64,000 nt of DNA, taken from the NCBI GenBank assembly GCA_035632415.1, contig DASQGW010000187.1:246-64245 (forward strand), written 5' to 3'. Below are positions 51,390-63,334 of this stretch, in pieces; position 1 is the first letter of the stretch; each line of letters starts with the position of its first letter. The DNA is from Burkholderiales bacterium (GTDB taxonomy: Bacteria > Pseudomonadota > Gammaproteobacteria > Burkholderiales > SG8-39). The notes beneath the pieces are model-generated. The model searched no databases. It was given only the letters and a program-made list of their open reading frames with translations, and was not told the origin of the DNA. The translations under genes were made by a program, and so were the position numbers.

Positions 51390-53039
51390 ATGCGCCAGCT
51401 TGAGCGGCGGCTGAGGCTCGCCACGGGCCTCATCATTGCCTGCTTCGTCGTCGGGCATTTCCTGAATCACTCGCTCGGCGTCGTGTCGATCGACGCCATG
51501 GACCGGTTGCGCGCGGTGCTCGCGGCATGGTGGCGCAGCGCGCCGGGCACCGTCCTCCTGTATGGCTCGCTGCTCACTCATTTCGCGCTGGCGCTCGTCT
51601 CGCTCTACCGTAGGACGACGCTGCGCATGCCGGCCTGGGAAGCAACCCAGCTCGTCCTCGGCCTCGCGATTCCACCGCTTCTCATCGCGCACATCGTCGG
51701 AACGCGGTTCTACTGGCTGCTCCTCGGGCACAACATCAACTACGAGCGCATGGTCGGCGTGCTGTGGTCGGACCCATGGTCGGCCGCGCGGCAGTCGATC
51801 CTGCTTCTCATCGCCTGGACGCATTTCTGCTTCGGCATGCATTACTGGCTGCGATTGAAGCGCTGGTACGAGACGGCGCTGCCTTCGCTCTTCGCCGCGG
51901 CGCTGTTAATCCCGGCGCTCGCGCTCGCCGGCTTTGCCGCCGCCGGCAACGAGCTCTGGCCGGCGGTGGAGCGCGTGGGCGGCATGCAGAAATACAACCT
52001 CGACCTCGCCGGCATGAAGCCGATCGAGCGCGAGCGGATGCTCGAGTGGCGCCAGGGGCTCGAGCTCGCGTTCTGGGCGCTCCTCGGCGCGACGCTCCTC
52101 GCTCGCTGGCTGCGCACGCGCATCGGCGGCACCTATGAGCTGCGCCACGCCTCGGGGCGCGTGATCACCGCGCCGATCGGCCGCAGCATCCTGGAGGCGG
52201 TGCGCGACGCGGGGCTGCCGCATGCTTCGGTATGCGGCGGCCGGGCCCGCTGCACGACCTGCCGCGTGCGCATTGGCGACGGTCTTGCGGCGCTCGCGCC
52301 GCCGGCCGCGATGGAAGCACAGGCGCTCGCGCGCATCGAGGCCCCGCCGAACGTGCGGCTCGCCTGCCAGACGCGGCCGCGCCACGACGTCTCGGTCATT
52401 CCGCTCCTGCCTCCAGGCGCCGACGCAACCGCGGCGCGTCGGCCGGGCACGGCGCGCGAACGCGAACGCCAGGTGGTGGCGATGTTCGTCGACCTGCGCG
52501 GCTCGACGCGCATCGCCGAATCGCGCCTGCCCTACGACGTCGTCTTCATCATGAACCAGTTCTTCGCCGAGATGTATGCGGCGCTGCGCGCGACGAACGG
52601 CTACTACGCCCAGTTCCGAGGCGATGGCCTGCTCGCGCTGTACGGGCTGGAAGGCGACCTCGCCTCGGCGTGCCGCGACGCGATGCGCGGCGCCGCCGAG
52701 ATGCAACGCCGCATCGAGCGGCTCTCGAAGAGCCTCAGCGCGGAGCTCGCCGAGCCGCTCAAGATCGGCATCGGCGCGCACGCCGGCGTGGCGATCGTCG
52801 GCACCATGGGCCCGCCGGAGGCGCCGATCTACTCGGCGATCGGCGACAACGTCAACATCGCCGCGCGCTTCGAGGGTATGACCAAGGCATACGGCTGCGT
52901 CATGGTGGTCTCCGCCGACACGCTTGCGCAGGCAGGACTCGATCCCCGCGGCGCGCCGGTGCATCGGGTAAGAGTGCGCGGCCGCAACGAGCGGGTGACC
53001 GTCTACGCCGTCGCCGATCCCCGCCAGCTCTTTAATTAA
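51390..53039 (+). CDS. membrane-anchored 2Fe-2S ferredoxin-domain class III nucleotidyl cyclase
   Basis: About 230 aa with 4-5 hydrophobic helices. Ferredoxin motif CGGRARCTTCRV...LACQ. Cyclase motifs MFVDLRGST, QFRGDGLLALY, IGDNVNIAARF. ATG immediately follows the ALDH stop (TGAATG). Confidence 0.85.
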   Translation: MRQLERRLRLATGLIIACFVVGHFLNHSLGVVSIDAMDRLRAVLAAWWRSAPGTVLLYGSLLTHFALALVSLYRRTTLRMPAWEATQLVLGLAIPPLLIAHIVGTRFYWLLLGHNINYERMVGVLWSDPWSAARQSILLLIAWTHFCFGMHYWLRLKRWYETALPSLFAAALLIPALALAGFAAAGNELWPAVERVGGMQKYNLDLAGMKPIERERMLEWRQGLELAFWALLGATLLARWLRTRIGGTYELRHASGRVITAPIGRSILEAVRDAGLPHASVCGGRARCTTCRVRIGDGLAALAPPAAMEAQALARIEAPPNVRLACQTRPRHDVSVIPLLPPGADATAARRPGTARERERQVVAMFVDLRGSTRIAESRLPYDVVFIMNQFFAEMYAALRATNGYYAQFRGDGLLALYGLEGDLASACRDAMRGAAEMQRRIERLSKSLSAELAEPLKIGIGAHAGVAIVGTMGPPEAPIYSAIGDNVNIAARFEGMTKAYGCVMVVSADTLAQAGLDPRGAPVHRVRVRGRNERVTVYAVADPRQLFN

Positions 53040-53057
53040 GGACGTTGTCCGGAATTA
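53034..53057. repeat. 24-nt AT-rich imperfect palindrome, copy B (exact reverse complement of 31028..31051)
   Basis: AATTAAGGACGTTGTCCGGAATTA. It contains the stop codons of both convergent flanking genes (TAA 53037-39, and TTA 53055-57 on the minus strand). Confidence 0.9.
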
Positions 53058-54557
53058 CCGGGGACCTTCGCGGTACGGGCGGCCGGCGGCGTAGAGCGCG
53101 AGGCGATCGCGGGCTTCTTTGCCGAAGCGCTTGTCGAACTCCGGCGAGTCGAGAGCCTTTTGCTGCAAGCGGATCGCCTCTGCGAATTCGCCGGCCTCGG
53201 CGTGCGCCGCCGCAAGCGTGTCGACGAAGTTGGGCTCCTGGTAGCGCGTGAGCTCGCACGCGGTCAACGCGAGCTCCTTCGCGCGCGGCGCGTTGCGCAG
53301 CGCGTCCTGGGTCGACGTGGCGAGGATCCAGGCGAGCGTGTTGTAGACCTCGGCGTCGCGGCTGCCGGAGGCAAGCGCCCGGTCGAGATCCTCCACGGCC
53401 GCCTGGTGCGCGCCGATCGCGCTGTAGAGCTCGCCGCGGGTCGCATAGGCGGTGGCGAGCTCGGGGCCGGAGAGCTTTCCGGCGACGATCGCGCTCGAGC
53501 AGGCCGCAAGGCGGCGCTCGAACGCGAGGCCGCGCGAGGCGCAGCGATCGAAGTCGGTCTCCGCCGCGAGCGCGCGCTCGATGCGCGCCGCCGTCACCGG
53601 ATGCGTGGAGAAATAATCCTGCGTTTTGCCGCTGGCGGCCGGCGGATGGCTGCGCTCCAGCAGCGTCAGCATGTCGGCGAAGGCGCGCGGCGAGATGCCC
53701 GCTTGCCGCATGCGCTGCAGGGCAAAGGCGTCGGCCTCGTCTTCGAACTTGCGCGAATAGCCCGTCTGGAGAAGCACGCTGGGGAGCGCGACCGCGAGGC
53801 TCGTGATCGAGCTCGCGTCGCCGGCGAGCGTCGTGACGAGCCCGAGCACACCTGCGCCTTGCAGCGCGGTGCGCAAGCCGTGCCGCGCGCGCAAGTGCCC
53901 CATCTCATGCGCCAGCACCGCGGCGATCTGGTCGTCGTTTTGCGCGAGCCTCACCAGCTCGTCGGTCATGACGATCGTGCCGCCGGGAAGGGCGAAGGCA
54001 TTCGGGCCGATGCGAGGACAGGCGCGGAGCTCGAGCCGGTATGCGTGATTATCGGCGAGGGCTTCGAGGCGCCGACGCAGCGCGGCCTGGCGGCGCGCCT
54101 CGACCGTACTGGGACCGCAGCCCGTACTTTCGAGGATCTGGAGCGTGCGTGAGCCGAGCGCTGCTTCCGCCTCCGCGGGCACGGCCGCGGCGATGTACTC
54201 GGCGGCGAGCGGCACGCCATGGACGATCGCCCACCACGTGGCTATCGCGACCAGCACCAATGCCGCGACGGCGTAGGGCCAGCGGCGCTCGAAGGTGTGG
54301 ATGCGCGACTCAAGCAGCGCCGCCTCGGGAAACAGCATTCGCACCGCTGCATCGTCCGCCGTGCGAAGCTGCGCGCCGTCCGGCAGCCGCAGGATGCGCG
54401 GCGTGTCGGCGATCGGCGGCTCGACTTTCACGGCCTCGCGCGGAACTCGCACATCGACGCCTTCACCCGTGAGCGTGAGCTCGCTCGTGAAGGCGCGCAC
54501 CCGCACCGCCCTGCTCGCCGAGCTGCGGCCGTCGTAATAGAGCGCGTCGAATTCCAT
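53055..54557 (-). CDS. M48-family zinc metallopeptidase with N-terminal beta-rich/TM region and C-terminal TPR repeats
   Basis: Motifs: AVLAHEMGHLRARH (HExxH), FEDEADAFA. TPR-like C-terminus (AYATRGELYSAIG..., YNTLAWILAT...). Confidence 0.85.
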   Translation of the reverse strand: MEFDALYYDGRSSASRAVRVRAFTSELTLTGEGVDVRVPREAVKVEPPIADTPRILRLPDGAQLRTADDAAVRMLFPEAALLESRIHTFERRWPYAVAALVLVAIATWWAIVHGVPLAAEYIAAAVPAEAEAALGSRTLQILESTGCGPSTVEARRQAALRRRLEALADNHAYRLELRACPRIGPNAFALPGGTIVMTDELVRLAQNDDQIAAVLAHEMGHLRARHGLRTALQGAGVLGLVTTLAGDASSITSLAVALPSVLLQTGYSRKFEDEADAFALQRMRQAGISPRAFADMLTLLERSHPPAASGKTQDYFSTHPVTAARIERALAAETDFDRCASRGLAFERRLAACSSAIVAGKLSGPELATAYATRGELYSAIGAHQAAVEDLDRALASGSRDAEVYNTLAWILATSTQDALRNAPRAKELALTACELTRYQEPNFVDTLAAAHAEAGEFAEAIRLQQKALDSPEFDKRFGKEARDRLALYAAGRPYREGPR

Positions 54558-54560
54558 CCG

Positions 54561-55619
54561 CTAAATGCTGAAGTCGAGCCCGAACATCTCGCCCACTTCT
54601 TCGCCGCTCGCGCTCACTTCGGCCGAGCGCTCGGCGACGAACTGGTCGAGCCCGCCGGCGACGATCGCCGTCGTCTTCTCGGCGCGATAGCGCATAGTCC
54701 GCACCACGGCCCACGGCGTGGCAAGCCCGAGCGTGAAGACGATGGCGAGAATGTTCACGAGATAAAGCAAGGCGAGATCGCGCGCGCGCAGACCGCTCTC
54801 GAAGCGCACCGCGTTCTCGCCGATCGATAGATGGTTCCAGATGGCGTTCGCGAACCGCGCGCGCACGTAGGCGAAGCCAGAGAGGTAGAAGGCGAGGACG
54901 CCGAGCGGCATCACCAGGATGCCCGTGATGGCGCCGGCGGCGCGGGCATTCGCGCCGGACATGCCGACCAACAGGCCGATCAGCATGCCGCACAGGAAAA
55001 AGAGCACGACGAGCAGCAGGACGAGCCCCAGGAACCGCAGGTAGATCCCGTAGAAAGCGCGCGCCAGGCTGGGCAGCGCGCACTGCGCGGTGCCATAGCG
55101 GTGATGGTCGGCGGTGTACTTCGTCAGGCGCGCCTGCGCATACGGGTAGGCGAAACCGATGGTCACGATGACGAACGCGGCGAGCCACGCGAAGAGCTTG
55201 AGCGCGCCGAGGTATTCGCCGTCGAAATGGAAGCGGATGTTGCGATAGGCGGTGTTATGCGCGTTGAACGCAAATGAGCGCACGAGCAGCCATGGAAAAG
55301 CGATCGCGAAGGCGATGGCGACGACGATCTGCAGCGTCACGGAAACATGGCCGGCAGCGCCGTAGAGGACGAAGATGACGACAGCGATGACGCGACCCCT
55401 CAGGATCGCGACCGGATCGCCGCGGTACTCGAAGCCCTCTCCGGCGAGAAGCGTGCTCGCATAGAAGTAGCGCTTCTTGCGCACCTTGGCCCACGGCGAG
55501 TAGATGCCGAGGGTGAGAACGGTCAGCGCGAGGTTGACGATCCAGATGCGGAAGTACTCGCCCGCCCTCGCCGTGAATTCGACCCGATGGCGTTCCGACG
55601 ATCCAGGAACGGCAGCCAT
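54561..55619 (-). CDS. DUF898/YjgN-family polytopic membrane protein
   Basis: FTARAGEYFRIWIVNLALTVLTLGIYSPWAKVR, with a repeat of the same motif near the C-terminus (LVNILAIVFTLGLATPWAVVR). Confidence 0.8.
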   Translation of the reverse strand: MAAVPGSSERHRVEFTARAGEYFRIWIVNLALTVLTLGIYSPWAKVRKKRYFYASTLLAGEGFEYRGDPVAILRGRVIAVVIFVLYGAAGHVSVTLQIVVAIAFAIAFPWLLVRSFAFNAHNTAYRNIRFHFDGEYLGALKLFAWLAAFVIVTIGFAYPYAQARLTKYTADHHRYGTAQCALPSLARAFYGIYLRFLGLVLLLVVLFFLCGMLIGLLVGMSGANARAAGAITGILVMPLGVLAFYLSGFAYVRARFANAIWNHLSIGENAVRFESGLRARDLALLYLVNILAIVFTLGLATPWAVVRTMRYRAEKTTAIVAGGLDQFVAERSAEVSASGEEVGEMFGLDFSI

Positions 55620-55671
55620 GATCCCCTCCCCTAGGACATGCTGACGGAATAATTACGTACTTGGTACGGAA

Positions 55672-56124
55672 TTATCTCTGGCCGCTGCGGGTGCGCGTGA
55701 GCTGGGTGGTGGTGCTGGCGAGGCGCGAAGCGAGGATCCTGATGAGCTCGATCGCCGCGTCCGGGTTCTCGCGGATGATCTTCATGAAGAGCTCCTTGGA
55801 AATCTTGAGCGTCTCGAGCTTGGTCAGCGCCTTGGCGGTCGCGGTGCGCGGCACCTCGCCGACGATGGCGATCTCGCCGAGGAGGTCGTTCTTCCCCATG
55901 TTGTTGATGACGATCGGGCCCGACGGCGTCGGCACCGAGATCTCGACGGTGCCGTCGATGATGACGTAGGCCGAGTCGCCGACGTCCCCGGCGTTGAAGA
56001 TCACCTGGCCGGAGTCGTACTTCAGGCGCTCCGCCGAGAAGCACAGCAGCTTCTGCATGGCCGGCTGGATCTTGCTGAAGATCGGGAACTGGCGGATGAG
56101 TTCGACTTCCTGCTCAAGGCTCAT
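55672..56124 (-). CDS. stand-alone cyclic-nucleotide-binding (CAP_ED) protein, 150 aa
   Basis: Motifs: FPIFSKI, GDSAYVIIDGTVEI. Phosphate-binding cassette LGEIAIVGEVPRTATAKA (G-E...R-T-A). No output domain. Confidence 0.85.
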   Translation of the reverse strand: MSLEQEVELIRQFPIFSKIQPAMQKLLCFSAERLKYDSGQVIFNAGDVGDSAYVIIDGTVEISVPTPSGPIVINNMGKNDLLGEIAIVGEVPRTATAKALTKLETLKISKELFMKIIRENPDAAIELIRILASRLASTTTQLTRTRSGQR

Positions 56125-56139: not shown

Positions 56140-58800
56140 TTACGCTGCAACCAGTAATTTCTGGAGCGGCCCGCCGTTCGATTTCAGCTCGGCGAAGGCG
56201 CCCTTCTCGGCGAGCTTGCCGCGCTCCATGACCAGCACCACGTTGAAGCGCTCCGCCAGGTCGGGCCGCGAGAGCACCCAGGCGACGCCGCGCCCCTTGC
56301 GCTCGGCAAGGATGCCCTCCAGCACGCGCTGCTGCGAGTTCGGATCGAGCGGCCCGAGCGCCTGGTCGACCACCAGCAGCGCCGGCCGCTTGAGGAGCGC
56401 GCGCACCAGCGCGACCTTTTGCCGGTCGGCCACCGGCAGGCGCGCGCCGCCGACGCCGACCTGGTAGTCGAGGCCGATCGTGACGACAAGCGGCCGCAGG
56501 CCGAGCTCGTCGAGGAGCTCGCGCACGAGCGCCGTGATGCGCGTGGCCGCCTCGGCCTGCGCCGTGACGATCTTGCCGAAAAGGATGTTGTCCTGCAGCG
56601 TGGCGGCGCTGTTGTACGTCGCGGCGTCGAAGAATTCGATCGAGCGCTTGAGCTCCGCCGGCAGGCGCGCCGCGAAATGGCGCCGCGCCTCGACGACTCG
56701 CGCCTCGAAGCTTTCGTCGATGAGGCCCAGGCGGTGGCGGGCGGCGATCAGCTTGAAGGGCAGCGAGATCAGCGCGCGCTGCTCCGCAGCCTCCATCTCC
56801 TTCAGCCCCACGTCCTTCGCGCGCTGCAGGATCGCCTCGAACTGCGGCAGGTCCTCCTGGCGGATGAAGCTGTATTGCGCGAAGAATTCATGGCCCGGCG
56901 GCAAGCCGCTGAAGAGCTCGACCATCGTCTCGGCCACCTTGTGGCCGGTGCGGAGCAGGAGCTCATAGAGCCCCGTGTCGTTCAGCACCTGCCGCACGTA
57001 GGCATTCGCCGCCAGGTTGTCGAGGTCGAACGCTTTTCCCACCGGGGTGCCGAAGAGCAGGTTCTCGGCGAGCGTGGCGTTGCGGATGTATTTCTCCGGA
57101 TCGAAGCGCTCGACCCAGTCCTGGATGCCGAGCGACGCAAGGCGCTCGTGCATGCGCAGGCGCGCATCGAGCACGCGCGGGCCGAGCATCGCCGCGCGCC
57201 GCGAGTCGGCGGCGCTGCGCAAGCCCAGCTCGAAGATCGCTTCATCGAGATCCACCACGGAAAGGAGCTCGACGATGCGCCGGTCCATCTCATCGTGATT
57301 CGAGACGCCGGCGGCGGCGTAGTCGATCCAGTCGGCGTTGATATCGAGCGTGCTGTTGCCGGTGCGGGCCGCCTCCTTCAGCTCCGCTTCGCGCTGCTGG
57401 CGCACGTCATCGGTGTATCCCGCGTCCCGCACCGGTTCATGCTTCAGTCCATAGACGATGTTCTCCCGCACGCTCGTCGGGAAGAGATAGGCGGGCGCGC
57501 CAACGTAGGCGAGCGAGCGGCCGGTGACCGCCTCCGGGGCGCGCGTCATGTCGATGCCGCCCATCTCGATCGTGCCGTTGGTCGGCGGCACGAGGCGCGC
57601 GAGCATCTGCGCGAGCTCGCTCGCCCCGCCCGCCTGGCGGCCGACGATGGCGATGTGGTCGCTCATGCTGCATTCGAACGAGGCGTCTTCCACCACGCGG
57701 CTGCCGGCATCGTCCACCAGCGACAGGCGCGCCGCCTTCAGGCGACCCTCCTGCGGCATCGGCGGCGACTTGACCAACGCCTGCAGCTCGGCCGGCGCTA
57801 CTTCCTCCGCGGTGAATTGCTCGACGACCTGGTTGTACTTGATCTCGACGTCCATCCTCTGCTGGTCCCAGTCGATCAGCTCCTTCACCGGCCCCGGCAG
57901 GTCCTTGTACGCGGCGATCACGGCGACGAGCGCGCCGATGTCGAGCTTGCCGACGATGACGAGGTAGCCGCCGAGCGTGTAGAAGAGGAACGGGGTCACC
58001 TGCGCGAGGAAGTTATTCAGGAACTTGACCATGAACTTCCGCTGGTAGAGCTCGAAGCGGATGTTGAAGATCCTTCCCAGCCGGTCCGAAATTTCCGCCC
58101 GTTCATAGTTGGACGTGTCGTGGGCGTGGATCTCGGCGGCGCCTTCGACGCACTCGGCGATGCGCCCGGCGAGCGCGCGCGCGGTGAGCTGGCGCTCGCG
58201 GCCGAGCACCAGCTGGCGCCTGCGCAGGCGCGGGATGATGAACGCCTGCACGCCGACGATGCCGAGCGCGATCAGGCCGAGCACCCAGTGCTGGTACATG
58301 ATGAAGAACATCGCCGTGAGCGCCTGGCCGCCGAGGAAGAGCGGCGTGATGAGCGCGTCGCCGATGAAGCCGCCCAGGGGCTCCACCTCGTCCTTGACCA
58401 TCGTCGCCATCTCGGCGGGCTTCACGCGCCGGAAGCGCGTGAGCGGAAAGCGCAGGATGAAGTCGAAGAGCGAGAAGCGCAGGCGCCTCAGCATGCGCTC
58501 GCCCATCCAGCCCTTCATGGTGTTGATCTGGAACTTGAGCCAGCCGTTGAGGACGATCAGGCCGAGAAACAGGATCGAGAGCGCGAAGAGATACGGGATG
58601 CGGTGCAGGTCGAAGCCGAGCAGGCGCCTCACCGAGTCGGCGGTCGGGAAGGAGATGCCCTGGATCGCCTGGTTGATGATCGTCTTCGGCAGGTCGAGGG
58701 ACAGGTAATAGACCACCATCGACGCGACGACGAGCGGCACGATCAGCAGCTGATCGCGCTTGCTGTACTTCAGGATGAAGCCGAAGAGGCTGCGTTCCAA
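56140..58800 (-). CDS. ABC-exporter-like protein (TMD + NBD) with degenerate ATPase motifs and expanded NBD (886 aa)
   Basis: N-terminal 6-TM-type domain. Walker A-like GRQAGGAS (no Lys), signature-like LPVAD, Walker B-like LLVVDQ, H-loop position VLSRP. About 395 aa lie between Walker A and the signature. Confidence 0.75.
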   Translation of the reverse strand: MERSLFGFILKYSKRDQLLIVPLVVASMVVYYLSLDLPKTIINQAIQGISFPTADSVRRLLGFDLHRIPYLFALSILFLGLIVLNGWLKFQINTMKGWMGERMLRRLRFSLFDFILRFPLTRFRRVKPAEMATMVKDEVEPLGGFIGDALITPLFLGGQALTAMFFIMYQHWVLGLIALGIVGVQAFIIPRLRRRQLVLGRERQLTARALAGRIAECVEGAAEIHAHDTSNYERAEISDRLGRIFNIRFELYQRKFMVKFLNNFLAQVTPFLFYTLGGYLVIVGKLDIGALVAVIAAYKDLPGPVKELIDWDQQRMDVEIKYNQVVEQFTAEEVAPAELQALVKSPPMPQEGRLKAARLSLVDDAGSRVVEDASFECSMSDHIAIVGRQAGGASELAQMLARLVPPTNGTIEMGGIDMTRAPEAVTGRSLAYVGAPAYLFPTSVRENIVYGLKHEPVRDAGYTDDVRQQREAELKEAARTGNSTLDINADWIDYAAAGVSNHDEMDRRIVELLSVVDLDEAIFELGLRSAADSRRAAMLGPRVLDARLRMHERLASLGIQDWVERFDPEKYIRNATLAENLLFGTPVGKAFDLDNLAANAYVRQVLNDTGLYELLLRTGHKVAETMVELFSGLPPGHEFFAQYSFIRQEDLPQFEAILQRAKDVGLKEMEAAEQRALISLPFKLIAARHRLGLIDESFEARVVEARRHFAARLPAELKRSIEFFDAATYNSAATLQDNILFGKIVTAQAEAATRITALVRELLDELGLRPLVVTIGLDYQVGVGGARLPVADRQKVALVRALLKRPALLVVDQALGPLDPNSQQRVLEGILAERKGRGVAWVLSRPDLAERFNVVLVMERGKLAEKGAFAELKSNGGPLQKLLVAA

Positions 58801-58831
58801 GAGCGGAAATTCCCCGCTACCATTCTAGTGC

Positions 58832-59662
58832 ATGGGGGGTAAGGCACCTTTTACCGTTCGCTTCTGGGGCGTGCGCGGCTCGATCGCGTGCTCCGGTCCT
58901 CGCACGGCGCGCTATGGCGGCAACACTTCGTCGCTCGAAGTGCGCTGCGGCGACCGTCTTCTCCTTTTCGATGCGGGCACCGGCATCCGCTATCTCGGCA
59001 AGACCCTCACCGGCTCGCGCATCGACGGCGATATCTACTTCACGCATACACATTTTGACCATGTGTGCGGCCTGCCCTTTTTCGGGCCGCTCTTTCAGCC
59101 GCAGAACAAGTTCCGCCTCTGGGCCGGCCACTTGAGCGGCGCGATGACGCTGAAGCGGGTGCTGGCGGAATTCATGATGTCGCCGCTCTTCCCCGTGCCG
59201 CCGGAAGTGTTCCGCTCGACGCTCGAGTACCGCGATTTCAAGGCGGGCGAGACGCTATCCGCAGCAAGCAACGTCACCGTGCGCACGGCGCCGCTCAACC
59301 ATCCCGACGGAGCGACCGGCTACCGCGTCGAGTTCGACGGGCGCGCCATCTGCTACGTCACCGACACCGAGCACGTCCCCGGCAGCCTCGACCGCAACGT
59401 GCTCGGGCTCATCGCCAGGGCGGACCTCGTCGTCTACGACTGCATGTACACCGATGACGAATACCGGCGCTACGTCGGCTGGGGCCACTCGACCTGGCAG
59501 GAAGGCGTGCGCCTGTGCAAGGAGGCCGGCGTGAAGCGCATGGTGGTGTTCCACCACGATCCCGACCACGACGACGAAATGCTCGACGGCATCGCGCGCG
59601 AGATCGGAAAGCAGATGCCCGGTTGCGTGGTCGCGCACGAAGGGCTCGTCCTCGAGCCTTGA
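58832..59662 (+). CDS. MBL-fold metallo-hydrolase
   Basis: Motifs: RFWGVRGS, FDAGTG, THTHFDHVCGLPFF (HxHxDH), HHDPDHDD. Confidence 0.8.
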   Translation: MGGKAPFTVRFWGVRGSIACSGPRTARYGGNTSSLEVRCGDRLLLFDAGTGIRYLGKTLTGSRIDGDIYFTHTHFDHVCGLPFFGPLFQPQNKFRLWAGHLSGAMTLKRVLAEFMMSPLFPVPPEVFRSTLEYRDFKAGETLSAASNVTVRTAPLNHPDGATGYRVEFDGRAICYVTDTEHVPGSLDRNVLGLIARADLVVYDCMYTDDEYRRYVGWGHSTWQEGVRLCKEAGVKRMVVFHHDPDHDDEMLDGIAREIGKQMPGCVVAHEGLVLEP

Positions 59663-60315
59663 GCTTTGTCATCAGCATCGAGTCGTACGCGGCCGAGCTC
59701 GACGCGATAGGAAAGGACGCACCTCCGCCCGCGCCTCGCTGGAACCAGGACTGGTTTCCGCGGCTCGATGCCGCCGCCGCCTACGCGATGGTGCGCACGC
59801 TGCGTCCGAAGCGCATCGTGGAAATCGGCTCGGGCCACTCGACGCGCTTTCTCGCCCGCGCGGTGGCCGACGGCGGTCTGGATACGCACATCAGCGCCAT
59901 CGACCCGCAACCGCGCGCGAGCCTCGAGGGGCTGAAGGTTCATTGGCTGAAGCAGCCGGTGCAGACGACTGCGCTGGATGTCTTCCAGGCGCTCGAGGCG
60001 CGCGACATCCTCTTCATCGACTCGAGCCACCAGATGAAGCCGGGCAGCGATGTCGAATTCCTGCTGGAGAAGGTGCTGCCGCGCCTTGCCAAGGATGTGC
60101 GCGTGCACTTCCACGATATCTTCCTGCCTGACCCTTATCCGGCGGCATGGGCCTGGCGGCGCTACAACGAGCAGGAAGTCGTCGCGCCGCTCATCGGGCA
60201 GGGCTACGCCATGGAGTTCTCCAGTCACCAGACGAGGCAACGGGACGGCGTCCTCTCCCGGCTGCCGCTCAAGCGAGGCGCGATCGAGTCGAGCTTATGG
60301 CTGCGCAAGTCCTAG
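59659..60315 (+). CDS. class I SAM-dependent methyltransferase-like protein (start uncertain)
   Basis: Motifs: IVEIGSGHSTRFLA (motif I-like), ILFIDSSH. I place the start at TTG 59659 (TTGA with the MBL stop). The earlier part of track ORF 59515.. overlaps the MBL gene. Confidence 0.55.
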   Translation: MSFVISIESYAAELDAIGKDAPPPAPRWNQDWFPRLDAAAAYAMVRTLRPKRIVEIGSGHSTRFLARAVADGGLDTHISAIDPQPRASLEGLKVHWLKQPVQTTALDVFQALEARDILFIDSSHQMKPGSDVEFLLEKVLPRLAKDVRVHFHDIFLPDPYPAAWAWRRYNEQEVVAPLIGQGYAMEFSSHQTRQRDGVLSRLPLKRGAIESSLWLRKS

Positions 60316-61481
60316 ACACTTCTTCCGTCCAGGAGTGGCTCGATGCGGGCGCGCAGCCGGCCGAGCGCCCCCAGGACGTGCTGCAGCACCTGTGCCGGCG
60401 CCTCGTCGGCCTGGGCATGCCGCTCTACCGGGTTGCCGTATTCGTGCGCACGCTGCATCCGAACGTCGCCGGCCGCGCGTTCATCTGGCACGAGCCGCAG
60501 GACGCGGTCGAGATCGTCACCGCCGAGCTCGGCATCCAGGAGACGGATACCTACCTGAAGAGCCCGGTGCGCGTCGTGTTTACCGAGCACGTCGAGGTGC
60601 GGCGGCGCATCGGTCCCGGCGCGCTCGATTTCCCGATCCTCGAGGACCTGCGCAAGGAGGGCGCGACCGATTTCTTCGCGGTACCGATGCGCTTCATCAA
60701 CGGCGAGGTCCACGGGGCGAGCTTCGTCACGCGCCGCGCCGGCGGCTTCGCCGATGCCGAGCTCGAAGCGCTGCGGCGCATCATGCCCGCCTTTTCCCGC
60801 GTGGCGGAGATCTACGCCTGGAAGCGCACGGCACGGAATATCCTCGATGCATATCTCGGCGAGCAGACCGGCGAGAAGGTGCTCGCCGGGAGAATCCGCC
60901 GCGGCGACGGCGAGGACATCCGCGCGGTGATCTGGTTCTGCGACCTGCGCGACTCGACGCCGCTCGCCGATTCGATGAGCCGGGTCGAATTCCTGCGCCT
61001 CCTGAACGAGTTCTTCGAATGCGTGCTCGGCCCGGTGCTCGAGCAGAAGGGCGAAGTGCTGCGGTTCATCGGCGACGCTGCGCTCGCTATCTTTCCCATC
61101 CCGCAGGGCGATGTCGCCGAGCGGGCCGGAGCGGCGCGCCGGGCGGTCCAGGCCGCCCAGGCGGCGGTCGAGCGCATGGCGGCGTTCAATGCCCGGCGCG
61201 AGCGCAAGCTCCGCTTCGGCATCGGCCTGCATCTCGGGCATGTGCTGTACGGCAACATCGGCACGCCGACCCGGATCGAATTCACCGTCATCGGCGCAGC
61301 CGCCAATGAAGCGGCCCGGATCGAGGGGTTCTGCAAGACGCTGGACGTTCCGCTGGTGCTCTCCGAGCCTGTGGCGCGCCATGTCGCGGACTGCGTGTCG
61401 CTCGGCAGCCATCGCCTGCGCGGCGTCGAGGAGCCGATCGAGCTTTTCACATTGAAAGCAATTCGCCCGCATCAGCCGTAA
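60297..61481 (+). CDS. class III nucleotidyl cyclase with ~190-aa N-terminal sensor domain
   Basis: From MAAQVLDTSSVQEW. Cyclase motifs: IWFCDLRDST, RFIGDAALAIF, IGAAANEAARI. Confidence 0.85.
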   Translation: MAAQVLDTSSVQEWLDAGAQPAERPQDVLQHLCRRLVGLGMPLYRVAVFVRTLHPNVAGRAFIWHEPQDAVEIVTAELGIQETDTYLKSPVRVVFTEHVEVRRRIGPGALDFPILEDLRKEGATDFFAVPMRFINGEVHGASFVTRRAGGFADAELEALRRIMPAFSRVAEIYAWKRTARNILDAYLGEQTGEKVLAGRIRRGDGEDIRAVIWFCDLRDSTPLADSMSRVEFLRLLNEFFECVLGPVLEQKGEVLRFIGDAALAIFPIPQGDVAERAGAARRAVQAAQAAVERMAAFNARRERKLRFGIGLHLGHVLYGNIGTPTRIEFTVIGAAANEAARIEGFCKTLDVPLVLSEPVARHVADCVSLGSHRLRGVEEPIELFTLKAIRPHQP

Positions 61482-61501
61482 TCGGTGTAAATTGCCGCGC
61501 A

Positions 61502-63334
61502 GTGCGAAGCATGGCGATCCCGAACACCGCGTCGGACGGTCCCGCCCCGCAGGAGCGCCCTCCCGCTTCGCTCGTCCACCTTCTTTCCGACTGGTACTGG
61601 GAGCAGGACGCGGAGTTCCGCTTCACCGTCGTCTCGACCAGGCGCCCGGAAAATTCCGCCGATCCGTTCCCCTATGTCGGCCGCAGGCACTGGGAACAGC
61701 CGGCGCTCAACCTGACCGACGCCGACTGGGAACGCCATCGCGCGCAGCTCGAGTGGCACCAGCCGTTCCGCGACTTCGAGGTGCAGCACGCCACCGAGGA
61801 CGGCCGCATCGTGTGGCTTTCGCTCTCGGGCGAGCCGATGTTCGACGACGCCGGCACGTTCAAGGGCTATCGCGGCATCGGACGCGATATCACGGCCCAG
61901 AAACGCGCCGAGGAGCTCTCCCGGCTCGAGCACGCCATCGCGCGGGAGCTCGCGCAGGCGGCGAGCGCCAGCGAAGGCGTGCGCGCCGCGCTGCGCCTCA
62001 TCTGCGACGTGGAGGGATGGGATGCCGGGCGTTGCTTTCGCGTCGATGCGGCGAGCGGCGATGTCGCCTATACCGAGGGCTGGTTCACCCGCGAAGGCGA
62101 CATCGAGCAGCTCCTGCGCGGATCGCGCGTGCTGTGGCAGGCCGGCAAGCCGGTCTGGTCGACCGATCTGCCGCGCGCGCAGGGCGGACGCTTCGGCGCC
62201 TTCGCCATCCCGGTCGTCGCGCAGCAGCACACGATCGCGATGCTCGCCTTCTCCGGCCATACGACGCGCGAGCCGGACAATGCTTTCGTCGATGCGGCGC
62301 CCGCCATCGGCAGCCTCTTCGGCCAGTTCCTGCAGCGCAAGGACGCCGAGGAAGCGCTGCGGGCGAGCGAGGCTCGCTTCAGGAGCCTCACGCAGCTCTC
62401 GAGCGACTTCTTCTGGGAGACGGACACGCAGCATCGCCTGTCGAGCGTCGTGCACGGCCCGAGCGCGGCGGCGGCGCGGGTCGGCTACGCCGCGGTCGGA
62501 AAAACGCCGTGGGAGATCCCGGCCGTTCGCCCGGACCCTTCCGGCTGGCAAGCGCACAAGGCGACGCTCGAGAGCCGGCTGCCTTTCCGCGACTTCGAGG
62601 TGGCGCGCACCGCGCCCGACGGCGGCACCCGCTACTTCGCCGTGAGCGGCCAGCCGCACTACGACGCGCGCGGCAATTTCCTCGGTTACCGGGGCGTCGG
62701 CCGCGACGTCACCGAGATCGCGCTCGCGCGCGAGCGCATAGCTTCGCTCGCTTACAGCGATCCGCTCACCGGGCTCGCCAACCGCGTGAGTCTCGCGCCG
62801 GCGCTCGACCAGGCGATCGAGCGTGCCAAGCGCCACGGCGGCAAGATCGCGGGCGTGTTCATCGATCTGGACGGCTTCAAGCAGATCAACGACCGGCATG
62901 GCCATGCCGCAGGCGACGCCTTCCTCGTCGAAGTGGCGCACCGCCTGCGCCGCCATGTGCGCGCGAGCGACCTCGTCGCGCGCTTCGGCGGCGACGAGTT
63001 CTTCGTCATGCTGGATGGCGTGCAGGACCTGGTCGGCGTCGAGCGCGTGGTGGTGAAGCTGATCGACGCGCTGCGCAAGCCCTACACGGGCTTCGGCGAC
63101 GCCCAGCGCCGCGTCTCCGCCACGCTGGGCGTCAGCCTTTTCCCCGATGACGCGCCGGATGCGGTCACGCTTGTCCAGCACGCCGACGAAGCGATGTACA
63201 CCGCCAAGCAGGCCGGCAAGAACGCCTACTGCCTTTTCTCCACCGGCAAGAAGCCCATACCGCCCGCCCCCAACGGGGCCGATGCGGCCGTCCGGCCGGC
63301 GGAAGCGCATCCGACCGTCGCGCGGCCGGAATAG
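61502..63334 (+). CDS. PAS-GAF-like-PAS-GGDEF diguanylate cyclase
   Basis: Two PAS units (YRGIGRDIT, YRGVGRDVT). Then DPLTGLANR, RFGGDEF, and A-site region HADEAMYTAK. Start is GTG 61502 or ATG 61511. Confidence 0.85.
   Translation: MRSMAIPNTASDGPAPQERPPASLVHLLSDWYWEQDAEFRFTVVSTRRPENSADPFPYVGRRHWEQPALNLTDADWERHRAQLEWHQPFRDFEVQHATEDGRIVWLSLSGEPMFDDAGTFKGYRGIGRDITAQKRAEELSRLEHAIARELAQAASASEGVRAALRLICDVEGWDAGRCFRVDAASGDVAYTEGWFTREGDIEQLLRGSRVLWQAGKPVWSTDLPRAQGGRFGAFAIPVVAQQHTIAMLAFSGHTTREPDNAFVDAAPAIGSLFGQFLQRKDAEEALRASEARFRSLTQLSSDFFWETDTQHRLSSVVHGPSAAAARVGYAAVGKTPWEIPAVRPDPSGWQAHKATLESRLPFRDFEVARTAPDGGTRYFAVSGQPHYDARGNFLGYRGVGRDVTEIALARERIASLAYSDPLTGLANRVSLAPALDQAIERAKRHGGKIAGVFIDLDGFKQINDRHGHAAGDAFLVEVAHRLRRHVRASDLVARFGGDEFFVMLDGVQDLVGVERVVVKLIDALRKPYTGFGDAQRRVSATLGVSLFPDDAPDAVTLVQHADEAMYTAKQAGKNAYCLFSTGKKPIPPAPNGADAAVRPAEAHPTVARPE

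Follow-up and report, generated by a model that had tools for sequence, protein, structure and literature searches.

Type IV (ABCB-like) ATP-binding cassette (ABC) exporters of the homodimeric kind, among them MsbA, the cyclic glucan exporter NdvA/ChvA, PglK, TmrAB, TM287/288 and the core of PCAT1, share a common domain order and fold. The same order and fold are found in a protein encoded at 56140..58800, on the minus strand, of a 64,000-nucleotide stretch from a Burkholderiales bacterium (GTDB lineage SG8-39; GenBank assembly GCA_035632415.1, contig DASQGW010000187.1). This whole stretch is referred to below as the window, and coordinates are positions within it unless another replicon is named. 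The 886-residue product, here called the ABC-like protein, combines an exporter-type transmembrane domain (TMD) with a degenerate nucleotide-binding domain (NBD). A Foldseek search of the PDB returned type IV exporters, including TmrAB (5mkk), Pseudomonas aeruginosa MsbA (9bd6), TM287/288 and PCAT1, at target-normalized TM-scores of 0.60-0.65 (entries 5mkk, 9bd6, 6quz and 8vox) and, for TmrAB, MsbA and TM287/288, at a probability of 1.00. The best sequence models are those of MsbA, HepA, NdvA and type I secretion ABC proteins. Compared with type IV exporters, the ABC-like family has five substituted motifs, a triplicated subdomain that adds 310 aa, and an obligatory partner that binds cyclic nucleotide monophosphates (cNMP). 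An association with glycan or glycolipid genes is shared by NdvA, PglK, MsbA and the ABC-like family alike.

Several ABC-exporter folds, such as TM287/288, TmrAB, BmrCD, CFTR and SUR, carry a nucleotide site that no longer hydrolyzes ATP, and in them the fold serves gating or regulation. These proteins keep at least one competent site or ATP binding, whereas a homodimer of the ABC-like protein would be left without any canonical site. Its regulatory ligand would differ as well, being a cyclic nucleotide bound to a separate CAP-type domain. An ABC exporter associated with a cNMP-domain protein is likewise found in the cNMP-associated bacteriocin exporters (TIGR03797 NHLM_micro_ABC2 with TIGR03896 cyc_nuc_ocin), and the locus matches both models weakly (TIGR03797, 96 bits against a cut-off of 709; TIGR03896, E 1.4e-7, cut-off 161 bits). 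Those systems presumably have canonical NBDs, export peptides and lack a triplicated helical subdomain.

Post-translational action of a second messenger on a membrane machine for polysaccharides is established for cyclic di-GMP (c-di-GMP) in BcsA-PilZ, Alg44 and PelD. These are conceptual analogues of the ABC-like family, without homology: messenger, receptor domain and membrane fold all differ, and such control of the ABC-like family is inferred. The nearest described genes are SMb21269 of Sinorhizobium meliloti and pRL110047 of Rhizobium, which have the same architecture and the same downstream cNMP-binding gene as the protein of the window. In the two rhizobial studies the orthologue is treated as an ordinary ABC exporter or permease.

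Gene model and domain layout

The window has a GC content of 65-70%, and two long open reading frames (ORFs) overlap at 56.1-58.8 kb. The plus-strand ORF (56419-58842, 807 aa) has the R/A/E/D-rich composition of a shadow frame and was ruled out; the minus-strand ORF 56140-58800, with a TTG start and a TAA stop, is the real gene. A search for homologs yielded more than 120 clusters at 72-90% identity and ~875-890 aa, from metagenome-assembled genomes of soil Burkholderiales, and these homologs open with MERSLF or MDRSLF at the same start. The gene is intact and strongly conserved, and belongs to a large family of Proteobacteria.

An AlphaFold2 model of the 886-aa protein, built with family representatives as the alignment, is very confident (mean predicted local distance difference test score, pLDDT, 92.8; predicted TM-score, pTM, 0.90). 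The TMD (residues 1-330, 57811..58800, minus strand as for all domains below) is formed by six long helices in the type IV exporter fold, as indicated by Pfam, the AlphaFold helices and Foldseek; ABC_membrane (PF00664) matches residues 73-296 with 53.2 bits against a cut-off of 28. The N-terminal half of the RecA-like core follows at residues 353-428 (57517..57744). The core is then interrupted by three copies of the helical subdomain: copy 1 at residues 429-555 (57136..57516), copy 2 at residues 561-715 (56656..57120; pLDDT 96-98) and copy 3, in the canonical position, at residues 719-803 (56392..56646). The C-terminal half of the core closes the protein (residues 804-886, 56143..56391), and the RecA-like beta core is present in the model of the NBD.

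Profile matches reflect this interrupted layout. ABC_tran (PF00005) scores 48.6 bits against a cut-off of 25, with residues 371-479 covering profile positions 2-80 of 137 only. The NCBIfam exporter models (MsbA, HepA, NdvA/ChvA, type I secretion and CydDC) match in two stretches, ~50-455 and 723/773-885, with scores 3-7x under their curated cut-offs. The protein fell short of the equivalog cut-offs for MsbA (TIGR02203, 165 vs 602 bits), NdvA/ChvA (NF010178, 105 vs 733; TIGR01192, 104 vs 585) and HepA (NF045513, 132 vs 725). Most of the insert is modeled at a pLDDT of at least 96, and no chain in the PDB search covered its ~310 aa. The family descends from homodimeric type IV ABC exporters like MsbA, NdvA and PglK.

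Degeneration of the ATP site

Motif positions were fixed by HMMER residue-level alignment to ABCB4 and ABCB1. The strings that an earlier note on this DNA had read from the translation were all recovered at the residues it gave (GRQAGGAS 387, YVGAPAYLF 432, TSVRENIVYG 442, ATLAENLLFG 575, ATLQDNILFG 733, LPVAD 788, LLVVDQ 808 and VLSRP 842). Each falls on a canonical motif position in this alignment, and the degeneracy described there stands.

The Walker A motif, canonically GSSGCGKS, lies in the N-terminal half of the core and reads GRQAGGAS (nt 57619-57642). Its Lys is replaced by Ala, as proposed; the claimed loss of the Ser/Thr position did not hold, as Ser394 occupies it. At the Q-loop (canonical VSQEP), the segment YVGAPAYLF (nt 57481-57507, in copy 1 of the helical subdomain) gives VGAPA, with Ala435 aligned to the canonical Gln. 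The signature LSGGQ is replaced by LPVAD (nt 56425-56439, in copy 3), so that Gly-Gly and Gln are gone. In the C-terminal half of the core, Walker B (canonical LLDEA) reads VVDQA within LLVVDQ (nt 56362-56379): the catalytic Glu has become Gln, in agreement with the note, and the Asp is retained. The D-loop is GPLD where SALD is canonical, and the H-loop IAHRL reads VLSRP (nt 56263-56277), with Ser844 aligned to the His. Walker A and signature lie 401 aa apart, close to the ~395 aa first estimated in place of the usual ~100, and ~310 additional residues lie between the Q-loop and the signature.

From these motifs we infer that the protein runs no canonical ATP-hydrolysis cycle. With degeneration on both faces of the single NBD, a homodimer would presumably lack any competent ATP site.

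Triplication of the helical subdomain

To compare the repeats, the 101-sequence family alignment (described below) was cut into three segments, whose profiles were aligned with hhalign. Segment 561-718 matched segment 719-886 with a probability of 98.3% (E 1.4e-14), segment 425-560 matched 719-886 with 95.3% (E 2.4e-8), and segment 425-560 matched 561-718 with 92.3% (E 5.4e-7). Profile-profile comparison was required: in plain pairwise self-alignment copy 2 against copy 3 reached z = 4.3 and copy 1 was not significant. Since the alignment of 425-560 with 719-886 spans the Q-loop strand to the helix after the signature, the repeat unit is the whole helical subdomain.

The structural model points the same way, with the pattern of strand, short helix, two helices and long helix occurring three times. 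Each copy bears one of the three motifs on which the triplication had been proposed (TSVRENIVYG, ATLAENLLFG and ATLQDNILFG, respectively). The three copies were upheld; their spacing is 133 and 158 aa and not a uniform ~150, and the triplicated region, placed earlier at nt ~56440-57640, was corrected to nt 56392-57516. Copy 1 bears an additional segment of ~40 aa at residues 455-495. Equivalent residues recur across the copies (N447/N580/N738 and R547/R706/R800), at positions that are some of the best conserved in the family. Of the 101 family sequences, all have R547, N580 and N738, at least 90% have R706 and R800, and 78 have Asn at position 447. By the profile comparison, the extra ~310 aa arise from triplication of the whole helical subdomain.

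Family-wide conservation and degeneracy

At E<=1e-30 the family comprises 857 representative clusters (50% identity) from Alpha- and Betaproteobacteria. The best 150 of these 857 representatives share 32-48% identity with the protein of the window, nearly all as full-length matches. Family columns were counted in 101 representatives at 31-48% identity, every one of which has the insert, at 280-370 aa.

The survey found the degeneracy across these representatives; it is no local accident. The position of the Walker A Lys holds Arg in 34, Lys in 30 and Ala in 18 of the 101; the Q-loop Gln is kept in seven, the H-loop His in about four, and the Gly-Gly of the signature in none, the column reading L-[SPT]-x-x-Q. 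At the Walker B Asp position, 52 have Asn and 33 have Asp, and the catalytic position is Glu in 25. Both GxxGxGK[ST] and hhhhDE are retained by a handful of members only (P0138, P0145 and P0232). Variation continues among relatives at 72-90% identity, where the P-loop includes two-residue deletions (VGRQGASE, VGRLGASE) and the signature takes the forms LPVAD, LAVAD, LTVAD, LAGAD and LALGD. This family-wide pattern supports the earlier proposal that the protein is unlikely to be a canonical ATP hydrolase.

In ordinary ABC exporters the NBD is more conserved than the TMD; in the ABC-like family the reverse is found. In the TMD, the best-conserved part, 78 of 330 columns are conserved in at least 80% of sequences; in the half of the NBD that contains Walker A, 1 of 63 is. 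As the TMD and the triplicated region are conserved and the ATP site is not, selection acts on the membrane domain and the helical region, and not on the ATP site.

Relatives of the TMD occur by themselves. A paralogue in the same genome, outside the window (contig C87:34757-35929), has 37% identity to residues 3-329, shares the conserved motifs and has no NBD; a P-type ATPase gene lies directly after it (C87:35931-38231). Similarly, plasmids of the Roseobacter group (Phaeobacter, Sulfitobacter and Leisingera) match residues 1-360 only. The TMD may have an NBD-independent function.

A literature search found no description of an architecture with degenerate NBD, triplication and cNMP partner. 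The family, for which there is no curated model, is real and large, and is a variant of the ABC exporter type.

A conserved cNMP-binding partner

Beginning 15 nt past the stop codon of the ABC-like gene, a gene at 55672..56124 (minus strand) encodes a stand-alone cNMP-binding protein of 150 aa with a single cNMP_binding domain (PF00027, 71.5 bits). Adjacency was surveyed by tblastn over 80 related loci, among them loci from Burkholderiales, Nitrosomonadales, Rhodoferax, Reyranella massiliensis, Kiloniella spongiae, Azospirillum soli, A. aestuarii, Dongia, Tistlia and Pelagibius. Of these loci 77 extend far enough to be informative, and in 75 of the 77 the next gene downstream encodes a cNMP-binding protein. 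The phosphate-binding cassette GEIxIxxDVPRTAT is conserved in at least 80% of 76 partners and is intact in the partner of the window.

The cassette reads PRTAT, with a Thr after the Arg that is conserved family-wide.

Gene fusions tell the same story as adjacency. Among the best 150 representatives, 40 are ~1000-1200 aa long, so that about a quarter were taken as fusions by length; a C-terminal cNMP_binding domain is present in all nine long members scanned, and the Gly-Glu/Asp and Arg of the cassette are kept in 36 of 38 aligned long members (~1000-1085 aa). Adjacency and fusion together are strong evidence for a physical and functional partnership, as the earlier note had supposed for the adjacent cNMP protein. 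In two of the nine scanned members (P0154 and P0165) the ABC-like and cNMP regions are followed by a C-terminal GGDEF domain, an architecture that suggests c-di-GMP output in some lineages.

Link to a glycosyltransferase cluster

In Kiloniella and Reyranella the ABC-like gene is flanked by glycosyltransferases. Tblastn showed this cluster to be conserved in ~50 alphaproteobacterial loci, in the order GT28-C-like, GT4, GT4, GT28-C-like; ABC-like, cNMP, Methyltransf_17; EEP and often peptidase C26, with a fatty-acid hydroxylase in few of the loci. Methyltransf_17 (PF12692) follows the cNMP gene in L043, L048 and ~40 other alphaproteobacterial loci, with an EEP-family phosphatase/nuclease adjoining in most of them and peptidase C26 following in about half.

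The four glycosyltransferases are also present in the genome of the window, all on contig C135:7764-12978, away from the ABC-like/cNMP pair; their identity to the Kiloniella proteins is 44-69%. Co-occurrence was assessed in one set of 401 genomes of the phylum, in which the insert and the GT28-like protein were each used as query. Each was found in 32 genomes: 28 carry both, four the ABC-like protein only and four the glycosyltransferase only, the last with weaker matches of 35-46% identity (Fisher p 1e-34, a value that overstates independence because the genomes are phylogenetically related). The pattern spans about a dozen families, and in ~10 of the 28 genomes with both, the two loci lie on different contigs or 14-80 kb apart.

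Rhizobial orthologues and their phenotypes

The protein of the window matches positions 841723-844375 of pSymB in S. meliloti 1021, overlapping SMb21269, with 46% identity over 98% of its length; for the pSymB and Rhizobium plasmid copies together the identity is 46% over 98-100% of the length, insert included. SMb21269 (842345-844435) is listed as 'PPP-biosynthesis; ABC exporter' in a transposon screen under phazolicin, with log2 fold changes of -4.77, -5.38 and -4.03 (Travin et al. 2023, Data Set S1, PMC10128002). Its depletion is similar to that of the cluster glycosyltransferases redA/redB (SMb21264/65) and of SMb21252, and the authors inferred an uncharacterized 'phazolicin-protecting polysaccharide'; the adenylate cyclase gene cyaA was also strongly depleted (PMC10128002).

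In strain 1021 the orthologue (L095:11962-14713, pSymB 841684-844435) falls into two overlapping ORFs, one of 237 and one of 762 aa, and the SMb21269 annotation begins no earlier than 842345; in other S. meliloti strains the alignment is unbroken. The split in the reference strain reflects a frameshift or else an old error of sequencing, and the split gene still has a strong transposon-sequencing phenotype.

On plasmid pRL11 of Rhizobium johnstonii 3841, RL_RS29995 ('ABC transporter transmembrane domain-containing protein') is preceded by two glycosyltransferases and followed by a cNMP-binding gene. As the 47th coding sequence of the plasmid it fits pRL110047, the 'permease of ABC exporter' required in pea nodules (Wheatley et al. 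2020, doi 10.1101/2020.05.07.082560). The degenerate NBD, the triplication and the cNMP partner are mentioned in neither paper (PMC10128002; doi 10.1101/2020.05.07.082560). Genetically, the rhizobial orthologues are thus required for traits that have been ascribed to a polysaccharide of the envelope, and the glycosyltransferase genes clustered with SMb21269 and pRL110047 are those also present in the genome of the window. In rhizobia the gene sits inside the glycosyltransferase cluster; here it is unlinked, amid cyclase, metallo-beta-lactamase (MBL) and GGDEF genes.

Genomic neighborhood in the window

No glycosyltransferase gene adjoins the ABC-like gene in the window. Since the pair is unlinked from the glycosyltransferase cluster and lies amid signaling genes, a glycan role here is carried over from the orthologues and from co-occurrence at genome level. 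Class III cyclases are numerous in the window, which also encodes a PAS-GGDEF protein and a receiver; this dense cyclic-nucleotide and c-di-GMP neighborhood fits the reading of the pair as a cNMP effector. Flanking the ABC-like operon are a membrane 2Fe-2S-ferredoxin-cyclase fusion (51390-53039, plus strand) on one side and a second class III cyclase (60147-61481, plus) and the PAS-GGDEF protein (61502-63334, plus) on the other, a bracketing kept in the closest relatives (L001, L015-L020, L034 and L039). For the minus-strand ORFs at 59470-60240, 60312-61472 and 61472-63310 Pfam gave no match, and the real genes there are plus-strand frames.

Upstream and divergent, an MBL-fold hydrolase is encoded at 58832..59662 on the plus strand (Lactamase_B_2, E 1.7e-23). 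It is a conserved neighbor only in the betaproteobacterial clade, where it lies upstream in 16 of 21 informative loci. A close homolog bears a precomputed 'Anti-Pycsar Apyc1' label; scored directly against hidden Markov models of Apyc1 and of class II cNMP phosphodiesterases, the protein gave negligible matches (E 0.28 and 0.16), Lactamase_B_2 being the only significant one, and a phosphodiesterase role is a guess only.

Downstream of the cNMP gene follow a DUF898 protein (54561-55619, minus) and an M48/DUF7092/TPR peptidase (53055-54557, minus), both assigned by Pfam. With an overlap of a few bases the two genes have the look of a coupled pair; a weak hairpin at 55656-55668 lies between them and the cNMP gene. 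Their occurrence downstream only in the closest relatives (L001 and L039) ruled them out as core components. In a promoter and terminator scan nothing exceeded chance.

Proposed role and alternative explanations

On balance, the ABC-like protein is probably, if by no means securely, a non-hydrolytic, cNMP-controlled component of glycan export built on the ABC fold. The glycosyltransferase-cluster link and the rhizobial phenotypes make this proposal more specific than the scaffold, receptor or channel-like partner first suggested for it. The membrane domain would form the translocation or gating component for the glycan of the cluster or its lipid-linked precursor. The partner would dock on the enlarged pseudo-NBD, with the three helical subdomains as its platform, and binding of cAMP or cGMP to the partner would control conformational switching. 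Direction would be set by downstream substrate consumption or membrane potential, and not by ATP. Flipping without ATP has precedents in Wzx and MurJ, and gating of a polysaccharide machine by a second messenger has one in BcsA-PilZ. A stronger version holds that the CAP-type receptor, bound to cAMP or cGMP, replaces ATP altogether, opening and closing the pseudo-NBD dimer and so gating an ATP-independent glycan flippase or channel; this is put forward tentatively, as a possibility we would not expect to be borne out.

Several observations weigh against a non-hydrolytic, cNMP-controlled glycan exporter. The loss of ATPase activity is deduced from motifs. The Ser394 of Walker A and the Asp of Walker B are retained, and a change of Glu to Gln in canonical ABC proteins still permits ATP binding. 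In some lineages ATP binding may persist, given that P0138, P0145 and P0232 have both Walker motifs intact. When a natural fusion of ABC-like and cNMP domains was modeled (pTM 0.74), the linker had a pLDDT <50 and the cNMP domain was not confidently placed. The phylogenetic relatedness behind the co-occurrence test counts here as well. Transposon phenotypes show requirement and not transport. Finally, the role in this organism could differ from that of the rhizobial orthologues, the neighbors being cyclase, GGDEF and MBL genes.

The protein might instead be a signaling scaffold or receptor that translocates nothing, its TMD sensing an envelope or lipid-linked intermediate or anchoring the complex, and its pseudo-NBD regulating glycosyltransferases or other outputs together with the cNMP protein. 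Such a function would suit the two fused members with an additional GGDEF output domain, the cyclases, PAS-GGDEF protein and response regulator around the window copy, and the TMD-only paralogue of the same genome; regulators with an ABC fold exist, as the SUR subunits of KATP channels show. We nevertheless judge it unlikely. The most conserved part of the protein is a type IV exporter TMD, coupling-helix regions included, and no other obvious exporter adjoins the glycan cluster in the loci examined. Moreover, in the S. meliloti screen its shared phenotype led the authors to place the gene among those for biosynthesis and export (PMC10128002).

It is less probable still that the protein remains an ATP-dependent exporter, working either through non-canonical residues or as a heterodimer with a canonical half-transporter encoded elsewhere. 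Its Ser394, its Walker B Asp and its RecA-like fold would be in keeping with this, as would the relatives that keep GxxGxGK[ST] and hhhhDE, and heterodimeric exporters with one degenerate site are well known. A heterodimer, however, would have both composite sites crippled, the Walker A/B/H-loop side and the signature side being degenerate alike. No second ABC half-transporter gene adjoins the gene here or in the 80 related loci, and the only three other ABC_membrane genes of the genome are all on other contigs. Across the family the Lys, Gln, Gly-Gly and His have gone, and indels in the P-loop occur among close relatives.

An anti-phage module of the Pycsar type, in which infection would induce a cyclic nucleotide and the cNMP protein would then activate a membrane-disrupting ABC-like effector, is very improbable. 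The window does contain several class III cyclases, and PADLOC gave weak matches of the cNMP protein to PycTIR cNMP domains (E 1e-12) and of the neighboring cyclases to PycC (E 1e-24 to 1e-16). These matches are at a generic domain level, with no specific PycC plus PycTM/PycTIR match, and the pair lies in a conserved chromosomal setting and not in a defence island. The pair is conserved over many families together with a housekeeping-like glycan cluster, without the patchy distribution of defence islands; its orthologues have envelope and symbiosis phenotypes; and the neighboring MBL protein is no Apyc1 match. A decaying pseudogene or an assembly or annotation artifact, which the substitution of every catalytic motif and the long shadow ORF on the other strand might bring to mind, is excluded by the conservation data, with 886 uninterrupted codons, hundreds of full-length homologs, a highly conserved insert and TMD, a very confident fold prediction and orthologues with phenotypes.

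Biological significance

About 8% of the genomes sampled in the phylum carry the ABC-like gene, and Sinorhizobium, Rhizobium, Azospirillum, Reyranella and Kiloniella are among its carriers. The window adds a betaproteobacterial example that is unlinked from the glycosyltransferase cluster. ABC exporters are defined by ATP-driven dimerization of their NBDs; the ABC-like family has lost the ATPase residues, enlarged the NBD and gained an obligatory cNMP receptor, which, if the proposed role is correct, would be a new mode of operating the fold. A membrane-machine effector would then join the short list of bacterial cAMP and cGMP targets, which are mostly CRP-type transcription factors, and bacterial envelope biogenesis would have a direct post-translational cyclic-nucleotide effector. 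Cultivable and genetically tractable orthologues exist, so that the hypothesis is directly testable. If true, it would provide a mechanistic handle on an envelope polysaccharide that affects both sensitivity to antibiotic peptides and symbiosis with legumes.

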